From assembly GCA_036848375.1 (NCBI GenBank), contig DAIUKG010000001.1:128110-192109 (forward strand): a stretch of 64,000 nucleotides of DNA, written 5' to 3'. How positions within the stretch are numbered: position 1 is the stretch's first letter; each line of letters starts with the position of its first letter. A program made the translations under genes and the position numbers. This DNA is from Spirochaetota bacterium. GTDB taxonomy: Bacteria > Spirochaetota > UBA4802 > UBA5550. Under the pieces are notes generated by a model, which did not search any database, had not been told where the DNA came from, and worked only from the letters and a program-made list of their open reading frames with translations. Of the stretch, positions 24,801 to 48,813 are shown one piece after another.

Positions 24801-26111
24801 AACCAGGATCGGCTCGAAGGCCTGTATTCCCAGGCGGTGAAGGGTCGGGGCGCGGTTGAGCAGCACCGGATGTTCGGATATAACCTCTTCAAGAACTTCC
24901 CATACTTCCGGGCGTTCGTTTTCCACCATCTTCTTTGCGGACTTTATGTTCTGAACGTAATCTTTATCAACGAGCCGTTTCATGATAAACGGCTTGAAAA
25001 GCTCGATGGCCATTTTCTTGGGAAGGCCGCACTGGTAAAGCTTCAGGTCAGGGCCGATAACGATGACCGAGCGTCCCGAATAGTCAACGCGCTTGCCCAG
25101 AAGGTTCTGCCTGAACCTTCCCTGTTTTCCTTTAAGCATATCGCTCAATGACTTGAGCGGCCTGCTTCCTTTGCCCTTGACCGCGCGCTTTCTTCTGCTG
25201 TTGTCAAACAGGGCGTCCACCGCCTCCTGGAGCATTCGTTTCTCGTTGCGCACGATAATCTCGGGCGCGCGCAGCATGAGCAGTCTTTTAAGCCTGTTGT
25301 TGCGGTTGATGACCCTTCGATACAGGTCATTTAGGTCGGATGTCGCGAAGCGCCCGCCGTCAAGCTGTACCATCGGCCTGAGTTCGGGAGGGATAACCGG
25401 AACAACATCAAGGATCATCCAGTCGGGTTTATTGCCCGAATCCCGGAACGCCTCGATGATTTCAAGCCTCTTGATCAGCTTCTTGTCTATTTTCGTCTCT
25501 TTAACGGATTTATTGTGAATATCGGCCCTGAGCTGCCGTGAAGCTTCATCAAGGTCAATGCTTGCCAGAAGCTCCTTTATGGCTGCAGCGCCCATTGAGG
25601 CGTTGAAGGTGTCGCCGTATTTTTCATAAAGCCCGTAGTAGGCTTCTTCATCGAGCACATCTCCGCGCTTGACGTCTTCAACTTCCGCTTCACCCGGATC
25701 GATGACGACATATTTTTCATAGTAGAGTATGGATTTCAGGGAATTGACCGTCATGTCAAGAAGCAGGCCCATGCGTGACGGCACTGACCGGTAATACCAA
25801 ATGTGGGCGACCGGAGCGGCAAGCTCAATATGCCCGCCGCGCTCCCTTCTTACTTTGTAATGGGTAACTTCAACGCCGCAGCGGTCGCAGATGACCCCCT
25901 TGTAGCGGATCGATTTGAACTTACCGCAATAGCATTCCCATTCCTTGGTTGTACCGAATATCTTTTCGCAGAAAAGGCCGTCCCTTTCCGGCTTGAGCGT
26001 CCGGTAATTTATTGTTTCGGGCTTTTTTACCTCGCCGTACGACCATTCCCTGATCATGTCCGGAGAAGCAAGTTTAATCTGGATTGAACTAAAATCGTTA
26101 AAGTCCCTCAT
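21876..26111 (-). CDS. rpoC: DNA-directed RNA polymerase subunit beta'
   Basis: 1411 aa; [12 protein letters not shown] catalytic motif, zinc-binding CxxC N-terminus. Confidence 0.97.
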
Positions 26112-26128
26112 AATTTCATCCTTGCAAA

Positions 26129-29100
26129 TTAAATATTCTGTAATGAATCGAGCTTAATTCGCTTTTTGGGCTTATTAAAGCCTTCACTCCACTCGGAAAG
26201 GCTTATCTCGTTGCCGGCATCGTCGTAAATCCTCACGTCAAGAGCGAGACCACGCAGCTCCTGGATAAGAACGTTAAACGATTCCGGAATGCCGGGCGAT
26301 GTTGTGTTGATGCCTTTAACGATCGCCTCGTAAATCCTGGCGCGGCCGAGCATATCATCCGACTTGACCGTGAGCAGCTCCTGAAGCGTGTACGCCGCAC
26401 CATACGCCTCGAGCGCCCACACTTCCATCTCTCCTAGCCGCTGGCCACCAAACTGGGCTTTTCCGCCGAGAGGCTGCTGGGTAACCAGAGAATAAGGCCC
26501 TGTTGACCGTGCGTGAATTTTATCGTCAACCATGTGGGCCAGCTTCATCATGTAAATCTTGCCCACCATTACTTCCTGCTCAAAGGGGACACCCGTGCGT
26601 CCGTCATAGAGCACGCTCTTGGACGTTTCGGGAAGGCCCGATTTTTTCAGGTAATCAATAATGTCTTCCTCTTCCGCGCCGTCAAAGATGGGGGTCTCCA
26701 CCATCACATCAAGCTTTTCGGCCGCCCATCCGAGCTCCGTTTCAAGCAGCTGTCCCAGGTTCATTCGCGAAGGGACCGAGAGCGGGTTGAGCACGATGTC
26801 AACCGGTGTCCCGTCAGGAAGGTACGGCATGTCATAGGGCGGGGCGATCCTTGAAATAACGCCCTTGTTGCCGTGGCGGCCGGCCATTTTATCGCCGACC
26901 GAGATCTTGCGTTTGTCAGCAATATATACTTTTACCAGGTCTTCAACTCCGGGAGAAAGCTCATCGCCGTTTTCCCGTGAAAAACGCTTCACGTCGACCA
27001 CGATCCCTTCAACACCGTTGGGCACCCTGAGGGAAGTGTCCCTGACCTCGCGCGCTTTTTCGCCGAAGATCGAATGAAGAAGTTTGTATTCCGGGGTGAG
27101 GTCCTGCTCTCCCTTGGGAGTGACCTTTCCGACAAGGATGTCATCCGGCTGCACGTACGCGCCGACACGGACAACACCTTCAGCATCGAGGTCCCGGAAG
27201 GCCTTTTCGCTCAGGTTCGGGATGTCCCGCGTTATGGTTTCACGACCGAGTTTGGTTTCGCGCGCTTCAACTTCAAACTGCTCAATGTGGATGGAGGTGT
27301 AAGAGTCCTCTTCGACCAGGCGCTCAGAAATGAGAATGGCGTCCTCGAAGTTGTATCCCATCCAGGGCATGAATGCCACAAGGATGTTTTTACCCAGAGC
27401 GAGCCGGCCGTTATCCGTGGCAGGGCCGTCGGCGATGACATCGCCAACCTTGATCTTCTGGCCTTCAACCACAACCGGCCGCTGATTGAAGCAGGTCCCC
27501 TGGTTGGTTCTCTTGTATTTCTGAAGCTGGTACTCGTCAATTTCACCGGCCGTGTTTTTTACTTTGACCACTTTGGCATCTGCATAGGTAACTTCACCGG
27601 CCCTGTCAGCAATGACCAGAACACCGGAATCATAGGCCGCGGCGGGCTCCATCCCCGTTCCTATAAGAGGCGCCTCTTCAGTAAGCAGGGGCACTGCCTG
27701 GCGCTGCATGTTCGATCCCATGAGTGCCCTGTTCGCGTCGTCATGCTCAAGAAACGGGATAAGGCAGGTCGACACCGAAAAGATCTGGGTAGGTGAAACG
27801 TCCATGTACTGTACTTCCTTGGGCTTTTTGTAAGGGAAGTTTCCTCGGTTCCTGGTGGGGATCATGCTCTTTACGAAGCTCCCGTCGTCAGAGAGCTCCG
27901 CGTTCGCCTGCGCGATGAAATAACTGTCCTCGATATTCGCGGTGAGGTATTCAACAGTGTCCGTGACTTTTCCCTTTTCAACCTTGCGGTATGGCGTTTC
28001 AAGAAAACCGTAGTCATTGATGCGCCCGAATGTACTGAGTGAAACGATGAGGCCGATATTCGGTCCCTCAGGAGTTTCAATAGGGCACATCCTTCCGTAA
28101 TGGGAAGGGTGAACGTCCCGGACTTCAAATCCTGCGCGCTCGCGCGAAAGGCCGCCGGGACCGAGCGCATTCAGCCTTCGCTTATGGGTAAGCTCCGCGA
28201 GCGGGTTGGTCTGGTCCATAAACTGTGAAAGCTGGCTGGAACCGAAGAATTCATTGATCACGGCCGATATCGGCTTAATACTGATAAGGGCCTGCGGTGT
28301 TATCACGTCAAGGTCCTGGATCGTCATCCGCTCCTTGATCACCCGCTCCATTCGCTGGAACCCTACCTTGATCTGGTTCATGATGAGTTCCCCAACTGAT
28401 CGGACGCGCCGGTTGCCCAGGTGGTCAATATCGTCAACGATGGTGGGCACAAAGCGTTTCGCCTTCTTCCCGCTTTCGTCTTTGTATTCTGTTTCATAAC
28501 CGTCAGCTTCAGCTATCAGATAGAGAATATATTTAACCGTATAAATGATATCTTCCTTGGTAAGGGTCAATTCACTGAGGCCCTTGAGGCCGAACTTCTC
28601 GTTTATTTTATACCTTCCCACATCACCGAGGCTGTAGGTTCGGGGATTAAAGAAAAGCCGGTCAAGCTCGTTTCGCGCGTTCTCAATATTCGTCGGTTCA
28701 CCGGGCCTCATGATCGCGTGAATCGCCAGAAGCGAAAGGTCGGATGATTTGTACCCTTCACTTTCGTCAACCTTGAGATTCTTTTTAATGAATTCCTTCT
28801 CCATTTCAAGTGTTGCGCTGAGGTAGGAATCTTCTTTATTGTTGGGAAAATCAATTATCTCAACTTCTTTTATCCCCTCGTCACGGATACGGTCGATAAT
28901 ATCGATATTGATCCGCTCACCGACTTCAATAACCACTTCACCGGTGCTTTTACTTATGGCGTCTTTGGCAACACGCTTACCGTTGAGAAGGCGATAATCA
29001 TCCTCACTTTCGAGCTTTACTTTTTTCGTGTCGTAAAAAAGCTTAACGATTTCTTCGTCAGATTCATAACCGAGCGCTTTTACCAGGAGCGTCACCGGGA

Positions 29101-32859: not shown

Positions 32860-33042
32860 TTATCTCAATACCACTTTTATTAACGCCATTAATCCGGTAT
32901 CAATAAGCCATAAAAAAATTGAAATAAAGACCACTGTCACCACAACAACGATAGTAAAGCTGGTGACTTCATCACGATTCGGCCACGTAACTTTACGCAA
33001 CTCTTCTTTAGACTCACGGATAAATTGAAGAACCTCTTTCAC
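32860..33042 (-). CDS. secE: preprotein translocase subunit SecE (GTG start)
   Basis: 60 aa; single C-terminal TM; KVTWPNRDEV motif; immediately upstream of nusG. Confidence 0.9.
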   Translation of the reverse strand: MKEVLQFIRESKEELRKVTWPNRDEVTSFTIVVVVTVVFISIFLWLIDTGLMALIKVVLR

Positions 33043-33065
33043 CGTAGCACCTGTACCAGGAGTGA

Positions 33066-33218
33066 TTATGCCTTCGTCTCTTTATGCAGCGTATGCTTAT
33101 TACAAAACTTGCAATATTTTTTAACTTCCAGCTTACCGGTCTGGTTCTTTTTATTCTTTGTAGTTGAATAATTCTTCCTTTTACATTCCTGACAGGCAAT
33201 TAAAATTATATCTCGCAT
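33066..33218 (-). CDS. rpmG: 50S ribosomal protein L33
   Basis: hand translation in another frame of the region the track reads as ORF 33014..33199: [50 protein letters not shown] (50 aa), with the CxxC...CxxC zinc ribbon of bL33. Confidence 0.88.
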
Positions 33219-33347
33219 ACCACAAGACCTACTTATTTTGGATTAAAATATGAGCAACCTAAGGATAATACTATATCAGTCAAGTATTTTAATTAAAAAA
33301 TATATTATTTCATTAAATTTTATTAGCTTTCAGCCCCGCCCCAGATG

Positions 33348-33420
33348 AGCCCACGACCAGAATCGAACTGGTGACCTTTTGCTTACCATGCAAATGCTCT
33401 ACCGACTGAGCTACGTGGGC
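33348..33420 (-). tRNA. tRNA-Thr (anticodon GGU)
   Basis: cloverleaf read by hand: acceptor GCCCACG/CGTGGGC, D arm GCTCAGTCGGTAGAGC, anticodon stem TTTGC/GCAAA with loop ATGGTAA, T arm ACCAGTTCGATTCTGGT; 73 nt; CCA not encoded. Confidence 0.85.
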
Positions 33421-33433
33421 AGAAGTAGAGTGT

Positions 33434-33463
33434 AATATAGTTATCACACCCTTTTTTTGTCAA
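33434..33463 (-). promoter_or_regulatory. candidate promoter for the tRNA-Thr-rpmG-secE-nusG unit (TTGACA-18-TATATT)
   Basis: perfect -35 and a good -10 located ~15 nt upstream of the tRNA 5' end. Confidence 0.45.
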
Positions 33464-33492
33464 TAAAATAATTCACATTTATCATTACTGAC

Positions 33493-33534
33493 AAAAAAAA
33501 GCAGGGATCACCCCGAAAGCGGCATGATCCCTGC
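33493..33534 (-). terminator. rho-independent terminator downstream of rlpA
   Basis: 9-bp stem GCAGGGATC...GATCCCTGC followed on the minus strand by UUUUUUUU. Confidence 0.6.
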
Positions 33535-33557
33535 TTGATATTTTCTATTATTATTGG

Positions 33558-34535
33558 TTATTCCCTGCTATCCAGAATAAAGGATGAGATATTTTCTTCC
33601 GAAAGCCTTCTTTTATGATTTGCAGCTTCTTCTCTGCTGGTAATGCCTTCAATACGGACTTTAAACATGTCATCATCCTGAATGATAACAACAGATCTCC
33701 CGGTAAGAGATTCGAGTCTTTTTTGAAGGTTCAGCGCATTTTTTCGAGAGTAAAAGGCTCCGGCCTGTATTGAAAATCTGCCGGTATCTTTCTGGTAGTT
33801 TTCATATTCCGCAGAATCGTCGGCAACAGGTTCAATGTAACGCCCGTCATCCCCGTCGACTTCATTGGAAGAATGATATTTACCGTCACCTTTTTTTAAT
33901 ATGCTGATCCCCACGTTCCCCTGACCCTGGGCAAGTATCCCAATCTTTTTTGCAGCATTATAAGAGAGATCAATAATCCTGTTGCCCCTGTATGGGCCCC
34001 GGTCATTAATTCTTACTGTTGCTTCCTTGCCATTTTCAAGGTTTTTAATAAGGAGTATCGTGCCAAATGGAAGGCTTTTATGTGCGGCAGTCATTTCATA
34101 CATATTAAATTTTTCACCTGACGCAGTCACTTTGCCATGAAATTCCCTTCCATACCATGAGGCTGTTCCTTTTTGATAATAATTAGACTGTCTTCCATAA
34201 TAATTACTATCCCGGTTATTTCCCTCTTCTTCATCATATCGGAAGTTATCATCTTCCCTTATTTCCTGAGCGATCCCTTTCCCATTCGAGGCACCTCTTT
34301 CATCCTCCATATCCTGTTCGCCATTAAAGGTCACATTTTCATTATCATAGTCCCGCTGTTCCTTTGAATAATCGCTCCTGTCGGAATACCGTGCAGAGTT
34401 CTTGCCTCGTGAATCATTATATCTCTGATATTCCCCGTCCCTTCTTGTTTGAGCCTTGCCGGGAGCACAGCCTATCAACAAAAAAACCATCAATAAAAAA
34501 CTGGAAATAGCTGTTATATCCCTGAAGAATTTCAT
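33558..34535 (-). CDS. rlpA: septal ring lytic transglycosylase RlpA-family lipoprotein (DPBB + C-terminal SPOR domain)
   Basis: start placed at MKFFRDITAISSFLLMVFLLIGC (lipobox, GGAGG SD) rather than the 107-codon upstream extension; DPBB core (FNMYEMTAAHKSLPFGT...RINDRGPY) and SPOR-like C-terminus. Confidence 0.8.
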   Translation of the reverse strand: MKFFRDITAISSFLLMVFLLIGCAPGKAQTRRDGEYQRYNDSRGKNSARYSDRSDYSKEQRDYDNENVTFNGEQDMEDERGASNGKGIAQEIREDDNFRYDEEEGNNRDSNYYGRQSNYYQKGTASWYGREFHGKVTASGEKFNMYEMTAAHKSLPFGTILLIKNLENGKEATVRINDRGPYRGNRIIDLSYNAAKKIGILAQGQGNVGISILKKGDGKYHSSNEVDGDDGRYIEPVADDSAEYENYQKDTGRFSIQAGAFYSRKNALNLQKRLESLTGRSVVIIQDDDMFKVRIEGITSREEAANHKRRLSEENISSFILDSRE

Positions 34536-34698
34536 CTTAAAACCTCCGAAAATTATCTCTAAAGCATTTATCGGTATTAAATAAAAATCCTTAAATCTAA
34601 AAAAAAGATCATCATAAAACTTCTTGACCTTTTCATCGCGTATCTTATCTCTATGTAGCTGAATCTCCTGCATATATAACATAGGGTATCGGTAATTA

Positions 34699-35733
34699 AT
34701 GAAAATACTATCATCCAAACCAACAATAACCCGAAAAGACCTCGAAGGCGTTCTTGATTGCCTCATTAATGATGAACTGATAACCGGAACGCCGGTAAAA
34801 ACATTTGAAAGTAATGTTTCCAGTATTACCGGCCTTAAATACACCCTGGCCACCAATTCCCCTACAGCGGCCTATCATCTTGTTTTTAAGGCACTGGACT
34901 TATCAGGGGATGATGAAGTAATAATGCCATCATATTTCAGCCAGGCGCCCCTTAATGCTCTCACGTTGACCGGAGGCAGGGCGGTACTCCTTGATAATGA
35001 GGAACAGTCCCTTTTCCCTTCTGCAACTGCCATTAAAGAAAAAATAAATGATAAAACAAAGGCCGTAATTATCGGGCACACCTTCGGGTTCCATTTCGAT
35101 TTTTCTGAACTCAACGACCTGAATATACCGCTTATAGAGGACATCTCACACGCTTTCGGCTCGGAAGCCGATGACATTCCCGTCGGGAACAAAGGCACAA
35201 TCGCAATCGCCTCTCTTGAGCCATCGATGATCATCACCACCGGCAATGGGGGGATGATTATGACCAACAATTCAAAATATTACTCCTCGATCAGGGACCT
35301 CCGGGGAGGAGGCAACCGTCAGCTCAACCTGGACTATACCATGACGGATTTGCAGGGGGCTATGGGCATATCTCAGCTTGTCAAATTAAAAGATCTTCTA
35401 AAAAGAAGAAGAGATATCGCTAAAACCTACTTTGATACTCTTAAGTTAACCGAACACAGCACACCTGCAGCCTTTAATGAAAAATACGCTTATCAGTCTT
35501 TTCCGGTACTTTTTAAAGCATCCAACGATAAAGTTGAAAAATTCTGGAAAAAAAACGGGGTTGAGCTTGTTCATCCCATTGAAAGGCCGCTTCATGATTT
35601 CATGAATATCAGGGGCATTGAATTCCCCGTAAGTGACAGGCTCTGTAAAAAAATCTATTCTCTTCCGATATATCCGACCCTGACTAAAAAAGACATTGAA
35701 AAAATCACCAAGACGCTATCAAGTTTCATATAA
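34699..35733 (+). CDS. DegT/DnrJ/EryC1/StrS-family aminotransferase-like protein lacking the conserved PLP-lysine
   Basis: 344 aa; EDISHAFGSE and TTGNGG motifs align to the family signature, but the Schiff-base Lys position reads Met (SLEPSMIITTGNGG versus the family's SFHxxKxITTxEGG). Confidence 0.65.
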   Translation: MKILSSKPTITRKDLEGVLDCLINDELITGTPVKTFESNVSSITGLKYTLATNSPTAAYHLVFKALDLSGDDEVIMPSYFSQAPLNALTLTGGRAVLLDNEEQSLFPSATAIKEKINDKTKAVIIGHTFGFHFDFSELNDLNIPLIEDISHAFGSEADDIPVGNKGTIAIASLEPSMIITTGNGGMIMTNNSKYYSSIRDLRGGGNRQLNLDYTMTDLQGAMGISQLVKLKDLLKRRRDIAKTYFDTLKLTEHSTPAAFNEKYAYQSFPVLFKASNDKVEKFWKKNGVELVHPIERPLHDFMNIRGIEFPVSDRLCKKIYSLPIYPTLTKKDIEKITKTLSSFI

Positions 35734-35762
35734 ATTAATTGTGAAAGATTCTGGAGATACCA

Positions 35763-36137
35763 ATGTATGTGTTGACCGTTGAAGACAGTTTCGCTGCCGC
35801 ACATCAATTAAGGGGCTACCGGGGTAAATGCGAAAACATCCATGGACATAACTGGAAGGTTGTACTTGAAGTACAGGGTAAAAAGCTGAATGAAACCGGC
35901 CTTCTCATAGACTTCCACGAATTAAAAGCAATCTTAAAAACAATACTATCCTATTTTGATCACCAGAATATCAATGATCTCCCGCCCTTTACATCAATCA
36001 ACCCGAGTTCAGAAAACCTCTCAAGATATGTTGCCGAAAAGACCGCAGACGAACTTCAAAAAACCGGAAAGGAAATAACGGTAAAGTCAGTAACGATTTG
36101 GGAATCTGACACTTCCCGATGTACTTTTTATCCCTGA
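35763..36137 (+). CDS. queD: 6-carboxy-5,6,7,8-tetrahydropterin synthase / 6-pyruvoyl-tetrahydropterin synthase family (QueD-like)
   Basis: 124 aa; CENIHGHNW zinc/catalytic motif of the PTPS/QueD family; GGAG SD; 29 nt downstream of the DegT-like gene. Confidence 0.8.
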   Translation: MYVLTVEDSFAAAHQLRGYRGKCENIHGHNWKVVLEVQGKKLNETGLLIDFHELKAILKTILSYFDHQNINDLPPFTSINPSSENLSRYVAEKTADELQKTGKEITVKSVTIWESDTSRCTFYP

Positions 36138-36335
36138 TTGAAGGCAGTATTGGAGCCTATCAATTCCGGGGATTATATATTATCTGACTAATATTAAAAT
36201 TTCACTATCGCCGGTACTCTTTGATAATTCCCAAATTTTCTTGAAAATAGATGAAAAATTTTTAAAATTATTCTTGATTTTTTTTTTAGTACGGCCTTAA
36301 TGATACCTTAAAATTAATTTAAGGAGTAATGCTCT

Positions 36336-36503
36336 ATGAAGAAGAATATCATTTCTCTTCTGATGATTTCAATTTTTGCAATCACAGTATCAATGGGTTT
36401 CCTTGGATGCAAAAAGGAAGAAGCGCCTGCTGATCAACCAGCTGTTGAAGAACCCGCTGCTGAAGCACCTGCTGGCGAAGCTGCAGAAGAAGCACAGAAG
36501 TAA
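36336..36503 (+). CDS. small lipoprotein (55 aa) with Pro/Ala/Glu-rich tail
   Basis: not in ORF track; AAGGAG SD 8 nt upstream; MKKNIISLLMISIFAITVSMGFLGC lipobox then KKEEAPADQPAVEEPAAEAPAGEAAEEAQK; followed by a terminator. Confidence 0.55.
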   Translation: MKKNIISLLMISIFAITVSMGFLGCKKEEAPADQPAVEEPAAEAPAGEAAEEAQK

Positions 36504-36522
36504 TTTTATTTTAACGTGCACG

Positions 36523-36552
36523 AAAAAGGAGGGACTGGATCCCTCCTTTTTT
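36523..36552. terminator. bidirectional rho-independent terminator (AAAAAGGAGGGA-CTGGA-TCCCTCCTTTTTT)
   Basis: 7-bp GC-rich stem flanked by A- and T-runs; placed between the convergent lipoprotein and response-regulator genes. Confidence 0.65.
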
Positions 36553-36580
36553 ATTTTTATTACAAAATATTATCCGGATA

Positions 36581-36943
36581 TTATGAAGCTCGTGAAACCA
36601 GTATCTCTTTTATTTTATCCTTCAGCTCGTCAAGATTTGTCGATTTGGTAACATAAGCATCGGCTGTCCACGTCATAAAATTACTTTTGTAATTCGAGTA
36701 AGCGGTATATATAATAATTGGAATTTTTTTATCGCGGGATAGAATTTTCCCGAGAGCCTCAATCCCATCCATCTCAGGCATTCTGATATCCATTATTACC
36801 AGATCATATTTATTTGTTTTAACCATTTCAACAGCTTCCTTGCCGTTTGACGCCTGATCAACATCATACCCTTCATCCTGCAGCTCCATGGCATAGAGCT
36901 CTCTCTGATGTTGCTCATCCTCAACAATAAGTAACTTGGTCAT
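36581..36943 (-). CDS. single-domain response regulator (CheY-like receiver only)
   Basis: 120 aa; LLIVEDE...D...LVIMDIRMPEMDG phospho-acceptor region; no output domain. Confidence 0.85.
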   Translation of the reverse strand: MTKLLIVEDEQHQRELYAMELQDEGYDVDQASNGKEAVEMVKTNKYDLVIMDIRMPEMDGIEALGKILSRDKKIPIIIYTAYSNYKSNFMTWTADAYVTKSTNLDELKDKIKEILVSRAS

Positions 36944-37040
36944 GAAGCACCTCCTCAGATTGCATGAACCATTTATATCGTAAAAAATTCATTTTGTAAA
37001 TCATTTATTAATTTTTTACTCTATATTATTGTCAGACCGA

Positions 37041-39077
37041 TCAGGCAGGGATAGGAAGGTATATGGTAAATTCCACACCCTGCTCCCGATTAGCCACAGT
37101 GATTTCTCCATTATGATCCTTGATTATTCTTTTGACAATCGCAAGGCCGAGCCCCACACCGGTAATCTTCGTCGTAAAAAAAGGTTCAAAAATAATATTG
37201 GGATCAGGTTCTTCAATGCCGGTTCCGGTATCGTATATTTTAAGAATAATCCTGCCATTATCATTGTCAGTAAATATCCCGATTGTTCCTCCCGGGAGCG
37301 TGGCATCAATACAGTTCTGGATCAAATTCAATACGACCTGTTTCATCTGATTGAAATCGGATTTAACCAGAGGAACATCATCCTTTAAATCCAGCTCAAT
37401 ATGAATCCTCTTTTCCAATAAAAGATTACGCAACAACTTGACCGTGTCATTGATGACATCGTTGATATTATTGAATTCCCTGATATATTTCGCCGGTTTG
37501 GTGAAGTCCATCACATTGGAAAGGGTTCCTTCAAGCCTCTCTGATTCCTTTAAAATAATTTCAGCGGCGGCGACTATTTTATCTCTGTTTTTCGTCGGGT
37601 CCTTGGAAAGCTGTGAAATTCTGCTGGCGTAACCGCCCATGGTTACCAGCGGATTTCTTATCTCGTGAGCGATATGGGCAGCTATGCGTCCCACAGCGGC
37701 CATCTTTTCAGATTCCACAATAGCTTCCTGCCGGTCCTGAATTTTCTGCATTTCCTTTTTTACATTGCCCAGATTGTCATAACTTTCGATTGACAGCGCA
37801 GCCTGCGAAGCAAAGATCGAAAGAAGCTCAATCAGGTCATTCCCGATGGGGGACTGATTGAATTTATTATCTGCTATTATTATTCCTATCGCCCTGTTCC
37901 CCACGATAAGGGGGACGACAACAAACTCTTTAACATCCATAAATGATGCGATTTGACTTCCGACAACAGGATCATTCCATGAATCAAATATATGGATATT
38001 TTCAATATTCTTATATGACCTGGAAAAGATCGAGTCATCCTTCAGCGGGAAGGTTGTGCTTAAAACTTTCTCAAGCAGCTTGAGGCCATGCTGTTTTACT
38101 TCAGCATCAACCCTGTTCCCCGGATCCGTATTCGGAGTGGCGCTCCATATGTCAATCGCCTCTTCAAATGAATCAGGGCCGACTGCCATTTTACCGACAA
38201 GAGAATCCCCGTCAGAGAGAAAAAGCATGGCCCTGTTAAAACCGAGGCCGGAACCTGACGTAACACCGGTCAGTATCGTGTATAAAACCCTTTCTATTTC
38301 TGCGTCCCTCTGAATCGATTCAGATATCTGGTTCATCAGTGATATCTGGTAATCTTTCCTCAATTTCGACGTCACATCATCAATCAGCAGGATGATCTCT
38401 TTACGGCCCTGCGCAATAATACTGGATATTTTAATATCAGCGATTATTGAAACCTTGTTAATTGACAGGAGGTGCGTCTTTTCGAGGATGATCGAATCAC
38501 CGCTTCCCCTCGCCTGTTTGATCCCCCCTTTCAAACGCGCATTGACAAAATAAAAAATATCGTCAATCCTCTTGCTTTTAATGTCATCCTGATCAAACTG
38601 GAATTTATTGCAGAAATTTTCAGTAGCGAAAACGATCCGTTCATATTCATTGAGGACAATAAAATATGAACTGATGGAAAAGATAATGCTGTTATAGACT
38701 TCATTGAATTTCTCGATTTCTACTTTCTGGGCCGTGAAAATGCTGTCCAGATGCTTGCCGAGAATTCTGATCTCTTCATAAACATCGCTCAATTCATCAT
38801 CATGCTTGATATCGATTTTTGGAAGGATAAACTTCCCCTTTTTAAAATCATATAAAGCGTCCATTACGACATTCGCCCGTTTTTTATAGAAAATCCAGCT
38901 TCGGATAAAATACATTATGCTGCGGACAAAAAGCAGGATCAGAAGGAGCAGAAGAAAATAGAGAACGGTATTTGAGAAAAAACTGATAAAAATAAAATAA
39001 ATAAAAAAACATCCCAATAAAAAATCCGGTATCACAAACAGAACAAGCCTGAAGAGGGTTCTTTTTCTTATTTTCAT
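37041..39077 (-). CDS. sensor histidine kinase (N-terminal TM segments, GAF domain, HisKA, HATPase_c)
   Basis: 678 aa; H-box AHIAHEIRNPL, ATP-lid DTGTGI...GLGLAIV; GAF-like central region; immediately upstream of the receiver gene. Confidence 0.85.
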   Translation of the reverse strand: MKIRKRTLFRLVLFVIPDFLLGCFFIYFIFISFFSNTVLYFLLLLLILLFVRSIMYFIRSWIFYKKRANVVMDALYDFKKGKFILPKIDIKHDDELSDVYEEIRILGKHLDSIFTAQKVEIEKFNEVYNSIIFSISSYFIVLNEYERIVFATENFCNKFQFDQDDIKSKRIDDIFYFVNARLKGGIKQARGSGDSIILEKTHLLSINKVSIIADIKISSIIAQGRKEIILLIDDVTSKLRKDYQISLMNQISESIQRDAEIERVLYTILTGVTSGSGLGFNRAMLFLSDGDSLVGKMAVGPDSFEEAIDIWSATPNTDPGNRVDAEVKQHGLKLLEKVLSTTFPLKDDSIFSRSYKNIENIHIFDSWNDPVVGSQIASFMDVKEFVVVPLIVGNRAIGIIIADNKFNQSPIGNDLIELLSIFASQAALSIESYDNLGNVKKEMQKIQDRQEAIVESEKMAAVGRIAAHIAHEIRNPLVTMGGYASRISQLSKDPTKNRDKIVAAAEIILKESERLEGTLSNVMDFTKPAKYIREFNNINDVINDTVKLLRNLLLEKRIHIELDLKDDVPLVKSDFNQMKQVVLNLIQNCIDATLPGGTIGIFTDNDNGRIILKIYDTGTGIEEPDPNIIFEPFFTTKITGVGLGLAIVKRIIKDHNGEITVANREQGVEFTIYLPIPA

Positions 39078-41858: not shown

Positions 41859-42645
41859 TCAGCACTGAAACAGAAAAGCCGGCACGCGCTCCATCGTGCA
41901 TAACAAATTCCTTCATATCACTGCCTATTTCCAAAATCAGATGTCCGTCATCTTCAAGATATTCCCGCGCTGAAAGAATGATCTTCTGAATGATGTCCCT
42001 GCCCCGGTTTTCTGCGAAAAGGGCGGCTTCCGGCTCGTAAAAAAGTTCTTTTTGCAGCTCAGAGGTGACACCCCGGTCAATATAAGGGGGATTGGAAACA
42101 ATCACATTAAATTTCATGCCGGCAAAGGGATGAAAAAGGTCCCCCCTGTAAAAAATAATCGATTTATCTCCCAGCAATGCCTTCGCATTTTTCCGTGCAA
42201 CGGCAAGGGCACCTGCTGACACGTCGGAAGCGAAAACGCCGAGGTCCCTTCTTGAATATTTCACGGAAACGGCCACCGCTCCCGAACCGGTTCCAAGATC
42301 GAGCACTGTTTCATTCATTCCCGCATAATACAAGGCCAAATCGACAAGAAGTTCCGTTTCAGGGCGGGGAATGAGAACATGCCGGTTAACGATAAAATCG
42401 AGGGAATAAAATTCTTTAATTCCGGTGATATAGGCAACCGGCTCCCCATCCCCGCGCCTTTTTATCATACCGGTGAAAAGGGCGCATTCATTATCGGTAA
42501 GAATGCGCTCTTTGTCAACAACAAGCCTGTATCGGTCGGTTCCAAGCACATGGCCGAGAATGACTTCAGCGTCGAGCAGCGGCGTCTCGATGCCGGACCG
42601 GGTCAATTCTGCAAGCGATGATTTCAACGCATCAGAAACATTCAC
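41818..42645 (-). CDS. prmC: release-factor glutamine methyltransferase PrmC (HemK)
   Basis: 275 aa; SAM-binding GTGSG and catalytic NPPY motif (VSNPPYI). Confidence 0.92.
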   Translation of the reverse strand: MNVSDALKSSLAELTRSGIETPLLDAEVILGHVLGTDRYRLVVDKERILTDNECALFTGMIKRRGDGEPVAYITGIKEFYSLDFIVNRHVLIPRPETELLVDLALYYAGMNETVLDLGTGSGAVAVSVKYSRRDLGVFASDVSAGALAVARKNAKALLGDKSIIFYRGDLFHPFAGMKFNVIVSNPPYIDRGVTSELQKELFYEPEAALFAENRGRDIIQKIILSAREYLEDDGHLILEIGSDMKEFVMHDGARAGFSVSVLNDYAGLPRVAHFR

Positions 42646-42654
42646 CGCCGTGCC

Positions 42655-43725
42655 TCAGGAGTTGATGACCTTCAGTTTCTGTTCGATTTCCGCTTTTCTG
42701 AGCGCGTCAATGATATCATCCATCTCGCCCGCGAGAAACGATTCGAGCGAATACAGGGTCACGCCAACGCGGTGGTCGGTCACCCGCGACTGGGGGAAAT
42801 TATAGGTGCGGATGCGCTCGCTTCTGTCACCGGAGCCGACCTGGGAACGGCGGAGGTCGGACTCTTTTTCAAGGCGCTCCTCCAGCTCAATTTCATAGAG
42901 ACGGGCTCGAAGAACGCGCAGGGCCTTCGCCTTGTTTTTATGCTGGGACTTTTCATCCTGGCAGGTAACGATCATTCCCGTGGGGATGTGCGTTATGCGG
43001 ACAGCGGAATCGGTCGTGTTGACCGACTGGCCGCCGTGCCCCGAAGAACGGTACACGTCGATCCTGAGGTCGTTGGGATCGATCTCGATTTCGCTTTCTT
43101 CAGCTTCCGGCATGACCGCGACAGTCACGGCCGAAGTGTGGACACGCCCGCCTGACTCGGTTGTCGGAACACGCTGCACGCGGTGCACTCCCGACTCATA
43201 TTTGAGGCTGTCATAGGCCTCTTCGCCGCGGACCGAAAATATCATTTCCTTGTAACCGCCGATCTCGGTCTGGTTCGCTTCAATGAATTCGATTTTCATC
43301 CCCTTGAGATCGGCATACCGCGTGTACATCCTGAACAGGTCGGCCGCGAAAAGCGCGGCCTCATCCCCGCCGGTTCCCGCGCGTATCTCCATGATAACGT
43401 CCTTACCCGAGCTGGGGTCCCTGGGAAGAAGCATTATCAGCAGTTCTTCTTCGTACTTGACGATCTTTTCCTCAAGCAGGGCTATTTCGCCGCGGAGCAT
43501 TTCACGCATCTCTTCATCGCGCTCATCTCTCAGCAGCGCGCGGCTTTCTTCAAGCTCCCTTGCGTATTTCAGGTATTCTTCATATTTCCGGACAACAGGC
43601 GCAAGCTGGGAACGCTCACGGTTGAGGTCTCGGTACCGGTTCATGTCAGAGACAATGTCAGGCCGGGACAGTTCGTTTTCGATCTCACTGAGCCTTCGGG
43701 CCATCACTTTAATTTTATCTTCCAT
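42655..43725 (-). CDS. prfA: peptide chain release factor 1
   Basis: start placed at MEDKIKVMARRL (the track's GTG extension overlaps tRNA-Arg); GGQ motif (SSGHGGQSVNTTDSAVR), PxT-class RF1 domain. Confidence 0.92.
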   Translation of the reverse strand: MEDKIKVMARRLSEIENELSRPDIVSDMNRYRDLNRERSQLAPVVRKYEEYLKYARELEESRALLRDERDEEMREMLRGEIALLEEKIVKYEEELLIMLLPRDPSSGKDVIMEIRAGTGGDEAALFAADLFRMYTRYADLKGMKIEFIEANQTEIGGYKEMIFSVRGEEAYDSLKYESGVHRVQRVPTTESGGRVHTSAVTVAVMPEAEESEIEIDPNDLRIDVYRSSGHGGQSVNTTDSAVRITHIPTGMIVTCQDEKSQHKNKAKALRVLRARLYEIELEERLEKESDLRRSQVGSGDRSERIRTYNFPQSRVTDHRVGVTLYSLESFLAGEMDDIIDALRKAEIEQKLKVINS

Positions 43726-43751
43726 AAACTCACTCTTTACTGAAAAAAAAG

Positions 43752-43767
43752 AGCGGCATATACCGCT
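43752..43767 (-). terminator. small hairpin flanked by A8/T10 runs between tRNA-Arg and prfA
   Basis: AAAAAAAAGAGCGG-CATATA-CCGCTTTTTTTTTT; only ~25 nt upstream of the prfA start. Confidence 0.4.
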
Positions 43768-43779
43768 TTTTTTTTGATG

Positions 43780-43853
43780 CGCTCCCGGGAGGACTCGAAC
43801 CTCCGGCACACGGTTTAGGAAACCGCTGCTCTATCCGCCTGAGCTACGGGAGC
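43780..43853 (-). tRNA. tRNA-Arg (anticodon CCU)
   Basis: cloverleaf read by hand: acceptor GCTCCCG/CGGGAGC, D arm GCTCAGGCGGATAGAGC, anticodon stem GCGGT/ACCGT with loop TTCCTAA, T arm GGAGGTTCGAGTCCTCC; 74 nt. Confidence 0.8.
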
Positions 43854-43908
43854 CGACAAAACCAGCCTCACGGTACAACCATGCTCTGAATACAATCTGG
43901 AGGCAGGA

Positions 43909-44553
43909 TCAAGAGAACATACTCTTTCGTTTTGACGAAACGACACGCTGAAAGTCCCTTATGTTCCGGACTACGATACGGTCGCCATAGAGTTCAATTT
44001 TGTCAAGGCGGGATAAATGTGTCAATACTTTTTGCACGTCCCCCTCGGCCATACCGGCCCAGCTTGCGACCTGCGGTGCATTGACATAGAGTGTTATTTC
44101 ATTTTGAAGATCGAGATGAGGGTCCTGCTCTGAAAGCATGTTAAGAACATCCATAACCTTCAGTTGAGGGTCTTCCAGAAGGAGGATCATGAGCCTTCTT
44201 TTCGCGTCATAAATCCTTTTGGAAAAAATGACCAGGAGCTTGTATGCCAGCTGCGGATTGCCCTGCAGAAGCGTATCAAAATTATCCCGGTGAAACTTCA
44301 GCAGTTTGACCCGGTCCATCGCTATCGTGGTCGCTGACCTGGGCTCCTCTTCAAGTATGGCCATCTCGCCGAAGACATCCCCGTCGCTGAGAACGTCAAT
44401 CGTCTTTTCGCGGTTGTTGATTATCTTGACGATCTTCACTCTTCCCGACTGGATGAAATAGAATTCATTCCCGGGTTCAAATTCGCAGAAAATGATCTCA
44501 TTGGGCGAATATTCAACGCCGAACCTGCTGAAAAATCTTTCATCGAGAATCAT
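43909..44553 (-). CDS. Crp/Fnr-family regulator with canonical cyclic-nucleotide-binding domain
   Basis: 214 aa; phosphate-binding cassette [19 protein letters not shown]; C-terminal HTH-like segment. Confidence 0.8.
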
Positions 44554-44564
44554 CGTTTATCCCT

Positions 44565-45746
44565 TTACCCCTGCAGTTGACGTATGCGCGCTGCGGCCTG
44601 CTGGCTTACCGAATCCCCGGGAGCCATTGAAGCCGCTTTTTTATAATACACCAGTGCTTTGTCCTTTTGCTTGGCCGATTCAAAAATCTGGCCCACATAA
44701 AAAAAGGCTTTTTTAACATTTTCTGATCGGGGGAAGTTTTTAATCACCGTGCTGAATGAGGCCATGGCTTCACGGGGCTTCCCCTGTTTCATATAACATC
44801 GCCCGATCTCAAAGTGGGAATTTTCATAAATCCTTTTGTCGTCATCGCTGACGATATCATCTGAGCTTATTATCTTTTCGTACACTTCCAGGGCCTGATC
44901 AACATGGCCTTCGTCAAAAAGCTCCCTGGCGTTTTCAAATAGATGGGGGATGAAATTCTCGTCAACCCCGCCCGGCTCATCAATCGTAAAATCGTCAAGA
45001 TCGCCCAGAGAATCATCGGAAAGAAAATCGTCCATTTCATCAGAAAGGGACCCGGACCCGGCATCCGCACCTGCCGGCGCAGGCTCGAAATCACTGCCGC
45101 CTTTGTCTTCCAGATCAAAATCATCGAAGCCGGCCGAATCCGGCTGTATATCATCCATCGCCTCCATGCCTGAGACGGGAACTGCGGTGTTTCCGGAAGC
45201 TATTGCATTGATGCGGTCCATTGCTGTTCCGGCATATTTGGAATCAGGATAATACTCCATCAGCTTTTTATATGCGTACTGCGCCTGCTGGAACACCGCG
45301 GTTTTAAAATAGTATTCACCGATGCGGAAGAGCTCCGCGTCGGGATTGATCGTGTCTTTTTCTCCCAGCACTGTCCTCTGGGTTTTATTGATGCGCCTGA
45401 GCTGGTTGCTGAAAACGCGAAGCATTTTGCGGACAACATTCACGTTGCGCAGGACCAGGCGTTCGAAATCAGAAAGGCTCAGGACAAGAACGATGGTCTC
45501 GCCTATAGTCTGCGCGGTCTCTTCCCTCGGGTAACGGCCGAGCGCTGACTTGACCCCGAAAAACTCACCCTGGCGGACTTCTTCTTTTACCTCTTCGCCG
45601 GTGTCCAGCTTGACCGAAGTGAGGACGACCCTGCCGCTTTTAAGCACGTAGATGTATTCGCTCTTATCACCTTCGAAATAAATAATTGACCCTGATTTGT
45701 ATGTTCTGGGTGCGATTCCGGATGGACTGCTCATTCCGTTTGCCAT
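44565..45746 (-). CDS. cNMP-binding-domain protein with acidic linker and C-terminal TPR repeats
   Basis: 393 aa; N-terminal cNMP-binding fold with divergent PBC (FFGVKSAL...PREETAQT); Asp/Glu-rich linker; TPR-like C-terminus. Confidence 0.7.
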   Translation of the reverse strand: MANGMSSPSGIAPRTYKSGSIIYFEGDKSEYIYVLKSGRVVLTSVKLDTGEEVKEEVRQGEFFGVKSALGRYPREETAQTIGETIVLVLSLSDFERLVLRNVNVVRKMLRVFSNQLRRINKTQRTVLGEKDTINPDAELFRIGEYYFKTAVFQQAQYAYKKLMEYYPDSKYAGTAMDRINAIASGNTAVPVSGMEAMDDIQPDSAGFDDFDLEDKGGSDFEPAPAGADAGSGSLSDEMDDFLSDDSLGDLDDFTIDEPGGVDENFIPHLFENARELFDEGHVDQALEVYEKIISSDDIVSDDDKRIYENSHFEIGRCYMKQGKPREAMASFSTVIKNFPRSENVKKAFFYVGQIFESAKQKDKALVYYKKAASMAPGDSVSQQAAARIRQLQG

Positions 45747-45763
45747 TGTCTGATCCTCGCCCC

Positions 45764-46996
45764 TTAAACCTCGAATTCCACCGGCAGGAATGGAAATTCT
45801 TTCTTAAAGCCAACGGCCCTGCTGATCCGTTTTAACAGCCCGATTACATCCCCGATGATGATTCTCTCAACGCCGTCAATAACGATCTCCTGGTATTTGA
45901 CGCCCAGGGACTTAAATACCGGCGCATAAGCCGCTTCTCCGTAGACCGGAAGGCCGTCAATGACCACGAGAAGAACGTCCTTCAGTTCAGCGGAAACGAC
46001 CGATGAGGCGGCGCTCCCGCCCCTGTTTCTGAAAACAGTGAGGTCCGCATGGTAACCTTCCCTGACCATGCCGTGATTTTTAAGCCAGAAAGCCTTCGCC
46101 GGATTTACCGTCACCATTTTAACAATTTCTTCATCAGGCAGTTCGCCGCCGAAGAGCTTTTTGTATAATGATTTGTCGAATTTCATTTCATGAAGGATAT
46201 TCAGGCCTCCGGACATGGGAGAGTCCGTGCCGATGCAGACATTGACGCCCTTCTTTCTGAGCATGTTCACATTAGCCGTTTTTGAATACATGAAATAATT
46301 CGAATCCCCGCACCAGACAACCGACGCGCCGCGCTGTTTGATAAGGTCCATGTCCGAATCCGAAAACGATAGCCCATGAACAAGAACGGAATGATCGCCA
46401 AGCCCGCCCTGCTTATCAAGGGTAACAACGTCCTTTCGTGTTTCAGCGTCGAACCCTTCAGCGATGTGGGTCACGAAGGGAATGCCCTCTTTCACCGCTT
46501 TCTGGTATTCGACCGAGATGCCATCGCCCCACGCGAGAGCGAATGACGTGATCGAATGGGCAAGGGCATATTCCCTGATTGCCTTGGTCGGCAATAAATC
46601 ATAATATGGTTCAGCAACGAAGTGGGGGATGTGGTCTGACACCGTGGTGACCCCGGACACAAGGTTTCGGTAGCCTCCGAGAAGGTACAGGTCCCGGTTT
46701 TCAATCTGCTGACGCTCCTGGTAGACCGGGGCGCTCTTTAAATCATTGTCCCAGGGCAGCCAGTTTTCATACGGGCCGTTTCCCACTTTCGGGAAATAAT
46801 TACCGAGAAGATGATCATGACTGTTGATAAGGCCGGGAGTCAGTATGCCATCGTCAATTCGCAATTCAACGGAATCGTTTCCTTCAGCCCTGCCGATAGT
46901 AAGAATCGTGTCCTTTTCAATGGTGACATTCTTTTTTTTCTGATGTGCTTCAGGGTTCAGAATATCAACGCCAGAAATTATCCATTTTTTCATCAT
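45764..46996 (-). CDS. amidohydrolase-superfamily deaminase (cytosine/guanine/SAH-deaminase-type; HxH...HxxE...H...D)
   Basis: start placed at MMKKWIISG (AAAGGAA SD); INSHDHL, HIAEG (His + catalytic Glu), VLVHG, GTDS metal/catalytic motifs. Confidence 0.8.
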   Translation of the reverse strand: MMKKWIISGVDILNPEAHQKKKNVTIEKDTILTIGRAEGNDSVELRIDDGILTPGLINSHDHLLGNYFPKVGNGPYENWLPWDNDLKSAPVYQERQQIENRDLYLLGGYRNLVSGVTTVSDHIPHFVAEPYYDLLPTKAIREYALAHSITSFALAWGDGISVEYQKAVKEGIPFVTHIAEGFDAETRKDVVTLDKQGGLGDHSVLVHGLSFSDSDMDLIKQRGASVVWCGDSNYFMYSKTANVNMLRKKGVNVCIGTDSPMSGGLNILHEMKFDKSLYKKLFGGELPDEEIVKMVTVNPAKAFWLKNHGMVREGYHADLTVFRNRGGSAASSVVSAELKDVLLVVIDGLPVYGEAAYAPVFKSLGVKYQEIVIDGVERIIIGDVIGLLKRISRAVGFKKEFPFLPVEFEV

Positions 46997-47019
46997 TAAT
47001 TCCTTTATAAGGGAAAAGT

Positions 47020-47200
47020 AAAATCTTTTCAATAAGTATTCTGTAAATGACAGCCGCGACAAACACCTGAAGGCAGCCACTTGGGAAATGCACTGTTCCC
47101 GGGCTCTGCAAGCAAGCCCCGCATCCTCAATATAATTTTAACTCCCTCAACGCGACTGCCTGAAGACATCACCATATCGGCGGCCCGATTCTTATAAACA
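47020..47200 (-). promoter_or_regulatory. GC-rich, highly structured ~180-nt 5' leader of the deaminase operon (candidate cis-regulatory RNA)
   Basis: GC-rich island in AT-rich intergenic DNA; predicted long-range stem CAGUCGCG/CGCGGCUG enclosing hairpins GGGCU-N9-AGCCC and GGGAA-N8-UUCCC; lies between the promoter and the SD. Confidence 0.3.
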
Positions 47201-47203
47201 AAT

Positions 47204-47232
47204 AATCTATTACCAACAATTTGATGCGTCAA
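47204..47232 (-). promoter_or_regulatory. candidate sigma70-like promoter (TTGACG-17-TAGATT) for the deaminase operon
   Basis: hexamers read on the minus strand ~200 nt upstream of the start codon. Confidence 0.35.
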
Positions 47233-47287
47233 GCAAAATAATCATCATGATGCCGTGCGACAAAATGTACACATAATTATTATCGGA

Positions 47288-48406
47288 TCATTGGCCGTTC
47301 TCATTTACTTCTCTCTGAACATTCTTGCTGTCATCACCGGCAGAGGCATTGTATTGATTGAGCAGGGTGTATATTTCCCAGAGAGAATAAAAAAGAGTCA
47401 TTAAAATCGGACCCACAATAACCCCCGGAAGCCCGAAGGTCTGGATACCGCCGAGAAGAAGGAAGAAAAAGAGAAGCGGATGGAAGTTAAGCCTGTCACC
47501 GAGAATTACCGGTTTGACCAGGTTTTCAAGAATGAAATACCAGAAAAGACACCATATTCCCAGAATGAGAGCTGCCGCATAGCTTCCTTTCATGAGAAGA
47601 AGGATAACTGCGGGAACCCAGATGAATGTTGTGCCCACAACCGGGATCAACGACAATATTGAAGCGACACTTCCCCAGAGCAGAGGCATCCCGAACCCGA
47701 AAAATGCGAGACCGACCCCGACCATCAGTCCCTGAAGCACCATAATAAAAAAGTTGCCTGCCATCAGAACCTTAACGACACTGTTTATTCTCTCCACCAC
47801 ATCCTTTTCAACATCATCGGGGAAAGGCATTATTTTGTAGAAAGCGGATGCAAAACGGGACCCGTCCTTAAATAGAAAAAACAGCATAAGAATCATTAAG
47901 AAAAATTTAATCGTAAAACTGAGCGGATAGGAGAGAATAGCGGTAATGCCGGATATGATCCGGATTGACGCCCGCTGGAGGGACTCGGTCACTTTCTGGA
48001 CAATTTCACCCTGGTCAATGCCGAAGTACGTGACGATCCGGTTAAAAATTTCACTTTTCTGGATCTCATCCAGAATTCCCAGGCTTATTTTATGCTGAAT
48101 CATGAGGTAGAGCTGATATGTCTGGTCAACCAGGGCCAGGAAAAAAAAGAAAAAAGGAATAAGAAAAAGGCTTATTAAAACAAAAACTATTACGGACGAA
48201 GCGACAACGGGTTTTTTTATATACTTTAAAAGCCAGTCATATAAAGGACGAAGTGTTGCATAGATGACAAGCGCGACAAGCAGGGGCCAGTAATAATGCC
48301 TGAACAGATATGCCAGTAAAAAAATGACGACACTGAAAAGGATGAAAAACAGGACCCTTAATTGTTTACTCTGGCTGATGATTGAATATGACTCACTTTT
48401 TTGCAT
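47288..48406 (-). CDS. AI-2E family transporter (PerM/UPF0118)
   Basis: 372 aa; 7-8 TM helices; family-typical Gly-rich C-terminal TM region. Confidence 0.8.
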   Translation of the reverse strand: MQKSESYSIISQSKQLRVLFFILFSVVIFLLAYLFRHYYWPLLVALVIYATLRPLYDWLLKYIKKPVVASSVIVFVLISLFLIPFFFFFLALVDQTYQLYLMIQHKISLGILDEIQKSEIFNRIVTYFGIDQGEIVQKVTESLQRASIRIISGITAILSYPLSFTIKFFLMILMLFFLFKDGSRFASAFYKIMPFPDDVEKDVVERINSVVKVLMAGNFFIMVLQGLMVGVGLAFFGFGMPLLWGSVASILSLIPVVGTTFIWVPAVILLLMKGSYAAALILGIWCLFWYFILENLVKPVILGDRLNFHPLLFFFLLLGGIQTFGLPGVIVGPILMTLFYSLWEIYTLLNQYNASAGDDSKNVQREVNENGQ

Positions 48407-48426
48407 AAAACCCCATTAAAGCAAAA

Positions 48427-48781: not shown

Positions 48782-48813
48782 CATGGAATCAAACTGAAAA
48801 AAATGAGGATGTA

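Follow-up and report, generated by a model that had tools for sequence, protein, structure and literature searches.

In this study, we analysed a 64-kb stretch of DNA from a Spirochaetota bacterium (contig DAIUKG010000001.1), referred to as the window, with respect to two adjacent genes on its forward strand. One of them codes for a protein with the DegT/DnrJ/EryC1 fold that lacks the Schiff-base lysine, the other for a homologue of the 6-carboxytetrahydropterin synthase QueD. Protein family scans covered 35 open reading frames (ORFs) of the window. The pair is made up as follows (nt, nucleotides; aa, amino acids; RBS, ribosome binding site):

34699..35733, forward strand: gene for the lysine-less DegT/DnrJ/EryC1-fold protein, 344 aa, with the Met177 codon at 35227-35229
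35734..35762, forward strand: spacer of 29 nt with the RBS GGAGATACCAATG (GGAG) and no terminator-like site
35763..36137, forward strand: gene for a QueD / PTPS-I/III-type 6-carboxytetrahydropterin synthase homologue, 124 aa, with the CENIHGH motif at 35829-35849

Both ORFs and their distance of 29 nt agree with the original prediction, a short note made from the DNA letters, and the strings quoted there (EDISHAFGSE, SLEPSMIITTGNGG and CENIHGHNW) are all present in the translations.

The 344-aa protein belongs to the DegT/DnrJ/EryC1/StrS sequence and fold family and has the fold-type-I architecture. It matched PF01041 with 207.4 bits (cut-off 19.8; E 4.7e-61), and this match spans residues 10-340, corresponding to positions 3-359 of the 360 model positions. 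The AlphaFold2 model reached a predicted local distance difference test score (pLDDT) of 91.4 and a predicted template modelling score (pTM) of 0.91, the ESM Atlas model had a pTM of 0.92, and a search of the ESM Atlas returned DegT clusters only. Using Foldseek, ArnB (4oca) and GDP-perosamine synthase (3bn1) were found with a template modelling (TM) score of 0.90 and E about 1e-28. The AlphaFold2 model superposes on ArnB, GDP-perosamine synthase, WbpE and the E1 dehydrase with TM scores of 0.88-0.91 at 24-28% identity. Canonical aminotransferases (ArnB, GDP-perosamine synthase, WbpE, PseC and Pcryo_0618) share with it the Pfam family and the fold within these ranges, and also the Asp for the pyridine nitrogen, the Ser before the lysine loop and the TTGxGG loop. 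Unlike these enzymes, which comprise roughly 360-400 aa, the protein is shorter, and every NCBIfam equivalog (PseC, ArnB, LegC-like, WecE, RfbH and DesI) stayed far below its cut-off, the best one being PseC with 171.3 bits vs 423.5.

Alignment to solved aminotransferases puts Met177 on the Schiff-base lysine. In phmmer comparisons with PDB chains, the segment S172-L-E-P-S-M177 lies opposite S-F-H-P-R-K of 8vr3, and M177 also lies opposite the corresponding lysine of 7b0d and 7n63. A 57-aa sub-query aligned without gaps to PseC 2fn6 (154-205) and to the E1 dehydrase 3bcx (193-245), with M177 at chain residues 183 and 220, respectively. Equivalent positions are named in the PDB titles of ArnB K188A, WbpE K185A and E1 dehydrase H220K. 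The exchange of Lys for Met, for which the original prediction had suggested an alignment or AlphaFold model as a check, is thereby confirmed. A displaced lysine elsewhere in the motif, the objection raised there, was rejected, since no conserved lysine occurs in residues 122-192 across the family and the motif is thus not rescued by a shifted one. The Schiff-base lysine in the S-x4-K loop, by which PLP-dependent sugar aminotransferases are recognized (PLP, pyridoxal 5′-phosphate), is therefore absent from the 344-aa protein. Met is unable to form an internal aldimine, and as judged from its sequence the protein cannot run the classical ping-pong transamination with PLP and pyridoxamine 5′-phosphate (PMP).

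To describe the family, a word-indexed protein search was used, which yielded 351 relatives; family statistics were calculated from the 120 orthologue clusters listed. In a genome scan, 133 stretches matched, including 109 that encode a relative; the 80 best of these were retained and, together with the window, give 81 loci. The 120 listed relatives comprise 343-362 aa and are 54-99% identical. In their joint alignment, position 177 is occupied by M (84), G (28), S (3), A (2), C (1), D (1) and K (1), while in the 81 loci, window included, M occurs in 61, G in 16, D in 4 and K in none. Across these alignments, loss of the lysine is a family trait and not a lesion. For ten close pairs, the ratio of non-synonymous to synonymous substitution rates (dN/dS) of the DegT-like gene was 0.017-0.121, indicating strong purifying selection, and the QueD gene was in the same range (0.021-0.115). 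Also, 41 columns are invariant in 44 DegT-like sequences. All 80 kept loci come from metagenome-assembled genomes (MAGs) of Spirochaetota or Leptospirales, and the organism names among the 120 listed relatives are uncultured Spirochaetes or Spirochaetota MAGs except for one '[bacterium]' and one Chrysiogenales MAG. A second search with the orthologue of locus L048 returned, among 120 listed matches, MAG proteins alone and no cultured Leptospira. Across the listed matches, the named organisms are uncultured Spirochaetes, Spirochaetota, Leptospiraceae, Spirochaetaceae and Spirochaetia MAGs. A literature search found no description of this lysine-less DegT-like family. Within the loci, a subclade of 16 genomes (L001, L002, L004-L008, L010-L012, L018, L021, L022, L027, L064 and L067) carries Gly177; here, QueD is not adjacent and strong purifying selection persists.

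Further cofactor contacts changed together with the lysine. For comparison, full-length representatives (320-400 aa) from an exhaustive search were used, of which 101 bear the lysine, and were set against the 120-member clade; residues around the pocket were assigned by alignment to solved enzymes. The following positions differ:

Position 55: G in 100 of the 101 lysine-bearing relatives; L 96, I 8, P 4, V 4 in the clade
Position 212: N in 74 of the 101 relatives; D 107, E 13 in the clade
Position 267: R in 98 of the 101 relatives; S 67, T 32, A 12, C 8 in the clade
Position 5: H in 90 of the 101 relatives; S 108 in the clade
Position 81: C in 93 of the 101 relatives; variable in the clade

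The four commonest clade residues at position 267 account for 119 of the 120 members, and R is not among them. In the phmmer alignments to 8vr3, 7b0d and 7n63, the Asn of the N-x-R motif is the counterpart of D212. Unlike the canonical aminotransferases, the family has thus lost, together with the lysine, the Gly of the phosphate loop (55), the trans-subunit Asn reaching the cofactor phosphate (212, now Asp or Glu) and Arg267. According to PMC8040287, Thr60, Asp156, Ser180, Lys185 and Asn239 are the only strictly conserved ligand contacts in Pcryo_0638, PglE and DesI; by spacing and motif these correspond here to T56, D148, S172, M177 and D212, with the match to Asn239 made by motif alone. Three of these five contacts are kept (T56, D148 and S172), while the lysine and the Asn are lost.

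In spite of these losses, the former pocket is among the best-conserved parts of the protein. S150, T180 and G184 are present in all 120 members, S172 in 117, D148 in 115, and H151 and N183 in 111 each. Residues that are new and near-invariant in the clade are R12, Y59, F63, H253 and W283, with F80 in 89 of the 120, and new aromatic and acidic residues appear to have arisen around the former cofactor pocket. Since the pocket is conserved and new residues surround it, it probably still binds a small molecule. The substitutions suggest that PLP or PMP is no longer used in the classical way, and we infer that the protein, which is under strong selection, has a remodelled but still used pocket and is not a decaying enzyme. 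The 30 of the 120 homologues with Val at position 56 may belong to the Gly177 subclade. Binding of nucleic acid or tRNA, suggested by the conserved R12, K13, R314 and K318, was unsupported: the isoelectric point is 6.7, as is the clade median, vs a median of 8.45 for the lysine-bearing relatives, and with such a non-basic value nothing points to nucleic-acid binding.

The loss of the lysine reaches beyond this clade. In the exhaustive search of representatives, the family is covered by one full-length 50% representative (P0134, 424 bits), and the next one follows at 223 bits and 38% identity. Among the 131 non-clade full-length representatives, 30 have no lysine at position 177 (M, S, R, D, H, A, N, T, E or Q instead). 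In a midpoint-rooted FastTree phylogeny (single run), the spirochaete clade is joined by 26 of the 30 in a cluster free of lysine-bearing sequences, and the other four (P0141, P0146, P0177 and P0230) fall among lysine-bearing sequences. The 30 representatives follow the trend of the clade, with G55 in 5, D212 in 20 and R267 in 10. A profile built from the 26 grouped representatives gave 12 strong matches, three of which are named and are Leptospiraceae, Spirochaetaceae or Spirochaetia MAGs; the lysine-less representative P0143 is also a Spirochaetota MAG. A search over proteins of all lengths gave no lysine-less fused (Rosetta-stone) form within its best 150 representatives, all fusions there being lysine-bearing. 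The nearest short lysine-bearing DegT relatives are fused to other modules (P0152, P0153, P0184, P0199, P0215, P0238, P0250 and P0275); taken alone, they all stay short of a named equivalog. In P0152, a true PseC-like domain is joined in tandem to a domain of the type of the DegT-like protein, while P0153 and P0184, both lysine-bearing, carry an N-terminal WecA/MraY-like transferase and an N-terminal GNAT domain, respectively.

These distributions bear on the known lysine-less members of the fold. The original prediction had drawn an analogy to the dehydratase ColD. Like ColD, E1 and SpnQ, which are PMP-dependent 3-dehydratases, the spirochaete protein has a DegT fold without the lysine, and E1 superposes with a TM score of 0.90, its His220 being aligned with M177 in the sub-query comparison. 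ColD has its catalytic His188 at the position of the Schiff-base lysine, and E1 also carries a [2Fe-2S] cluster. Unlike E1, whose catalytic His is named in the PDB title 'H220K mutant', the spirochaete family never has H at position 177; unlike both ColD and E1, it has Met or Gly there, with six different residues being accepted (M, G, S, A, C and D). Because the position varies freely, no general acid or base seems to replace the lysine. In phmmer comparisons, ColD and E1 match residues 9-205 or 19-205 only, with E 1e-11 to 1e-20. With the His absent, the lysine position varying and the other cofactor contacts lost, a dehydratase of the ColD/E1 type was rejected and the analogy was given up.

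The second gene of the pair codes for an ordinary QueD of the known PTPS-I/III hybrid type, as judged by family models and motif. The 124-aa protein matched PF01242 with 138 bits (E 1.6e-40) and TIGR03367 (QueD) with 101.1 bits at a cut-off of 89.25, and it aligns with solved QueD/PTPS structures. H14, C23, E24, H27, H29, D66, H67 and E114 are invariant in 34 QueD orthologues. As described in PMC5041015, PTPS-I/QueD proteins have the motif CxxxHGH and PTPS-III proteins of the folate pathway the motif ExxHGH, and CExxHGH hybrids exist which can act in both the queuosine and the folate pathway. Both motifs are contained in C23-E-N-I-H27-G-H29, and CExxHGH was found in all 60 QueD copies adjoining a DegT-like gene, so that the homologue may have a part in folate synthesis in addition to queuosine synthesis. 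Like COG0720 QueD/PTPS-I proteins and PTPS-I/III hybrids, the protein passes TIGR03367 and carries CENIHGH, but unlike the COG0720 systems described in the accessible text of this review, it has a DegT-fold neighbour. A literature search did not bring up any paper connecting COG0720 with a DegT-fold gene, and the accessible text of the review makes no such connection.

How tightly are the two genes linked? QueD is located directly downstream of the DegT-like gene in 60 of the 80 loci and in the window (61/81), with gaps of 5-336 nt. Co-transcription, as claimed in the original prediction, is very probable for the window: the genes are 29 nt apart, and the spacer contains an RBS and lacks a terminator-like site. 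An RlpA homologue lies upstream in 68 of the 80 related loci, and NusG, RlpA, a response regulator, a kinase and Ham1 are conserved as well, forming a syntenic block common to most loci. The pair is kept despite different flanks in seven rearranged loci (L029, L043, L048 and L052, with genes for an ADP-forming acyl-CoA synthetase and serS, RtcA-like and mcsA/B-like genes as flanks, and L044, L053 and L058). In all seven, RlpA is gone and QueD lies within 5-14 nt, making QueD the more persistent neighbour.

Around the pair, the following features were found in the window:

33558..34538, reverse strand: gene for an rlpA-family lytic transglycosylase lipoprotein with DPBB (PF03330) and SPOR (PF05036) domains, the divergent neighbour
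34539..34698, no strand: divergent intergenic region of 160 bp with the conserved box TTCTTGACC at 34621-34629
36336..36503, forward strand: gene for a small lipoprotein of 55 aa with signal peptide, lipobox LGC and a Pro/Ala/Glu-rich tail, preceded by its own RBS and a promoter-like site
36522..36552, forward strand: intrinsic-terminator-like hairpin of 13 pairs with a T run, which ends the forward-strand unit after the lipoprotein gene

The divergent rlpA gene and the small lipoprotein gene after the pair are located as the original prediction had placed them. The RlpA-family ORF reached 147.8 bits with TIGR00413 (cut-off 82). Its true start is most likely 34538, as placed from an RBS (GGAGG) and a lipobox signal peptide (MKFF...LIGC), so that 160 bp of intergenic region remain before the DegT-like gene. 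The longest rlpA ORF (33558-34856, reverse strand; 432 aa from TTG) overlaps the start of the DegT-like gene by 158 nt. The RlpA-family protein resembles the Leptospira plasminogen-binding lipoprotein MPL36 with 169 bits, which is below the cut-off of 430. The box TTCTTGACC, with a -35-like TTGAC core, precedes the start of the DegT-like gene by about 70 nt. Of 77 sequences (from the window and 76 loci), 37 contain the 8-mer TTCTTGAC in the 160 nt before the start. The box probably represents the promoter; no convincing -10 element was identified beside it. Between the QueD and lipoprotein genes are 198 nt with promoter-like sites. Homologues of the 55-aa lipoprotein, which matched no Pfam or NCBIfam family, lie downstream of the pair in 25 of the 80 related loci (tblastn).

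A stand-alone receiver-domain response regulator (36581-36943, reverse strand) and a PAS-GAF histidine kinase (37041-39077, reverse strand) converge on the pair. Both are kept downstream in most related loci, with the regulator as the most conserved neighbour (66-94% identity). The remaining genes of the window are housekeeping genes (ribosomal proteins, rpoA, secY, tuf, fusA, rpoB, rpoC, nusG, prfA, prmC, clpB and nrdD/nrdG). The one radical-SAM ORF of the window (57952-58650) was considered as QueE and rejected, as it is NrdG2 (203 bits vs a cut-off of 131). An ORF at 48814-49917 (reverse strand) matched the Leptospira Lsa36-family surface (lipo)protein model with 129 bits vs a cut-off of 90; together with the MPL36-like RlpA, this fits an origin of the window from a Leptospirales-like uncultured spirochaete. 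The G+C content alternates between about 0.33-0.42 and 0.50-0.53 when positions 22000-28000, 42000-54000 and 60000-64000 are compared with the rest; in rpoB/rpoC and several further blocks, it exceeds that of the ribosomal-protein and DegT/QueD regions by about 10 points.

The best explanation we can offer, put forward tentatively and as a putative role, is that the DegT-like protein is a lysine-independent ligand-binding or catalytic protein on a rebuilt cofactor site and is tied to the pterin / 7-deazaguanine branch of QueD. On the basis of gene order, it would be made from one transcript with the PTPS-I/III-type QueD and would act in or on the branch that starts from guanosine triphosphate and is fed by QueD, for example by binding, handing over or modifying the substrate or product of QueD. 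The 'pterin or sugar-modifying pair' of the original prediction is kept as a hypothesis. Several observations weigh against this explanation. No ligand or reaction was identified by any analysis of the DegT-like protein, and its retained contacts are not uniform, since T56 is Val in 30 of the 120 clade members. As most loci share a whole syntenic block, adjacency is partly inherited gene order. The co-occurrence suggested as a check by the original prediction is seen in 61 of 81 loci including rearranged ones, but 20 of the 80 loci have the DegT-like gene without adjacent QueD. On the protein tree, adjacency was lost about three times (in the Gly177 clade of 16, in L049 and in L062/L071/L076). 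In loci without adjacent QueD, the dN/dS of the DegT-like gene is equally low (0.067 and 0.093), so the protein needs no QueD in cis. Over positions 33000-37100, Rfam at E<=0.1 gave a tRNA-Thr alone and no preQ1 or tetrahydrofolate riboswitch. A scan of the window and of six rearranged loci revealed none of folK, queC, queE and folE. The original prediction had pointed out that queC and queE are lacking nearby, and this stands insofar as neither these genes nor folE or sugar-nucleotide genes are among the 35 window ORFs scanned, but for queC and queE it says little because QueD carries the hybrid motif. A more far-reaching version, in which the lysine-less branch is a new functional class on the DegT scaffold, the old PLP pocket binds a pterin or 7-deazaguanine intermediate and the protein partners QueD in queuosine and/or folate synthesis, is unlikely. 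In this version, the pocket, with its extra aromatics Y59, F63 and F80 and the acidic D/E212, would hold such an intermediate in place of vitamin B6, and the protein would be, at the same low probability, a previously unrecognized enzyme, carrier or regulator in a large group of uncultured spirochaetes.

Other explanations do without a functional link to QueD. The protein could still be a vitamin B6 enzyme which holds PMP or PLP non-covalently and carries out a lysine-independent reaction on a nucleotide-linked keto-sugar, with QueD as an operon passenger. In favour of this, the protein retains D148 (the pyridine-nitrogen contact) and S172, in most members also T56, together with an intact TTGxGG loop. 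Its fold cannot be told apart from those of ArnB, perosamine synthase and E1, its closest NCBIfam models are without exception those of sugar aminotransferases, and PDB titles show K-to-A mutants of ArnB, perosamine synthase and WbpE still binding cofactor or ligand. Such an enzyme is rather unlikely nevertheless, because position 177 varies (M, G, S, A, C, D) instead of being His as in ColD/E1, Asn212 is changed to Asp or Glu in all 120 members, which places a negative charge at the usual site of the cofactor phosphate, Gly55 is changed to a bulky aliphatic residue, and T56 gives way to Val in the members mentioned above. Moreover, sugar-nucleotide, glycosyltransferase and O-antigen genes were not found in the window or the scanned loci. 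The reactions proposed for it (dehydration, isomerization or a slow half-transamination) are likewise rather improbable. Quite unlikely is a role in the cell envelope with RlpA or the lipoprotein, such as binding of a UDP-sugar or peptidoglycan precursor, where the link to QueD would be inherited synteny. It is suggested by RlpA, whose gene is divergent upstream in 68 of 80 loci, by the small lipoprotein, which follows downstream in 25 of 80, and by the lysine-bearing relatives fused to a WecA/MraY-like transferase (P0153) and a GNAT domain (P0184), which show that DegT proteins from this region of the tree serve envelope glycan pathways. In the seven rearranged loci, however, QueD has been kept next to the gene without RlpA.

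A published precedent exists for a lysine-less homologue that acts through a partner. Ser4 of the SerTA heterotetramer of Serratia sp. ATCC 39006 is, according to PMC11726168, a lysine-less aminotransferase homologue that is functional and required for the activity of its partner Ser5. The spirochaete protein is a comparable sugar-aminotransferase homologue without catalytic lysine, and could accordingly be a subunit without catalytic activity whose partner is a canonical, lysine-bearing DegT paralogue encoded elsewhere. In DegT enzymes, each active site draws on two subunits, and N212 and T214, both changed here, belong to a segment which canonical enzymes contribute across the dimer. According to PMC11726168, however, Ser4 is truncated to the large domain (24.6 kDa) and encoded beside Ser5 in a secondary-metabolite cluster, while the spirochaete protein is full length (344 aa) and encoded in a housekeeping region. 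A second DegT gene was not found in the 64-kb window or within at most 6 kb in the six rearranged loci scanned, the other loci being searched by tblastn with window proteins only. In addition, strong conservation of its own pocket is unexpected for a mere structural partner, and a dead subunit is very unlikely. A decaying pseudogene or an artefact of ORF calling, for which the missing lysine and nothing else speaks, is practically refuted and was rejected in view of the uniform length of 343-362 aa in the 120 listed clusters, the low dN/dS of 0.017-0.121, the confident fold and the 41 invariant columns in 44 sequences.

DegT-family genes are routinely annotated as sugar aminotransferases, and members of the present family carry public names such as 'perosamine synthetase', 'dTDP-4-amino-4,6-dideoxygalactose transaminase' and 'UDP-4-amino-4-deoxy-L-arabinose aminotransferase'. 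These aminotransferase names are almost certainly wrong for the whole DegT-like family and for the wider lysine-less branch. What is new is this lysine-less, pocket-conserving branch of the DegT fold, while its PTPS-I/III QueD partner is of an already known kind. The family provides a clean and well-populated case of a fold-type-I PLP scaffold that has lost the lysine and the phosphate contacts and is nevertheless under strong selection with a conserved pocket. With a pterin or a deazapurine as its ligand, the protein would be a further component of the queuosine or folate pathway; otherwise, the family would still represent a new lysine-independent use of the fold. Either outcome corrects the annotation in hundreds of MAGs.

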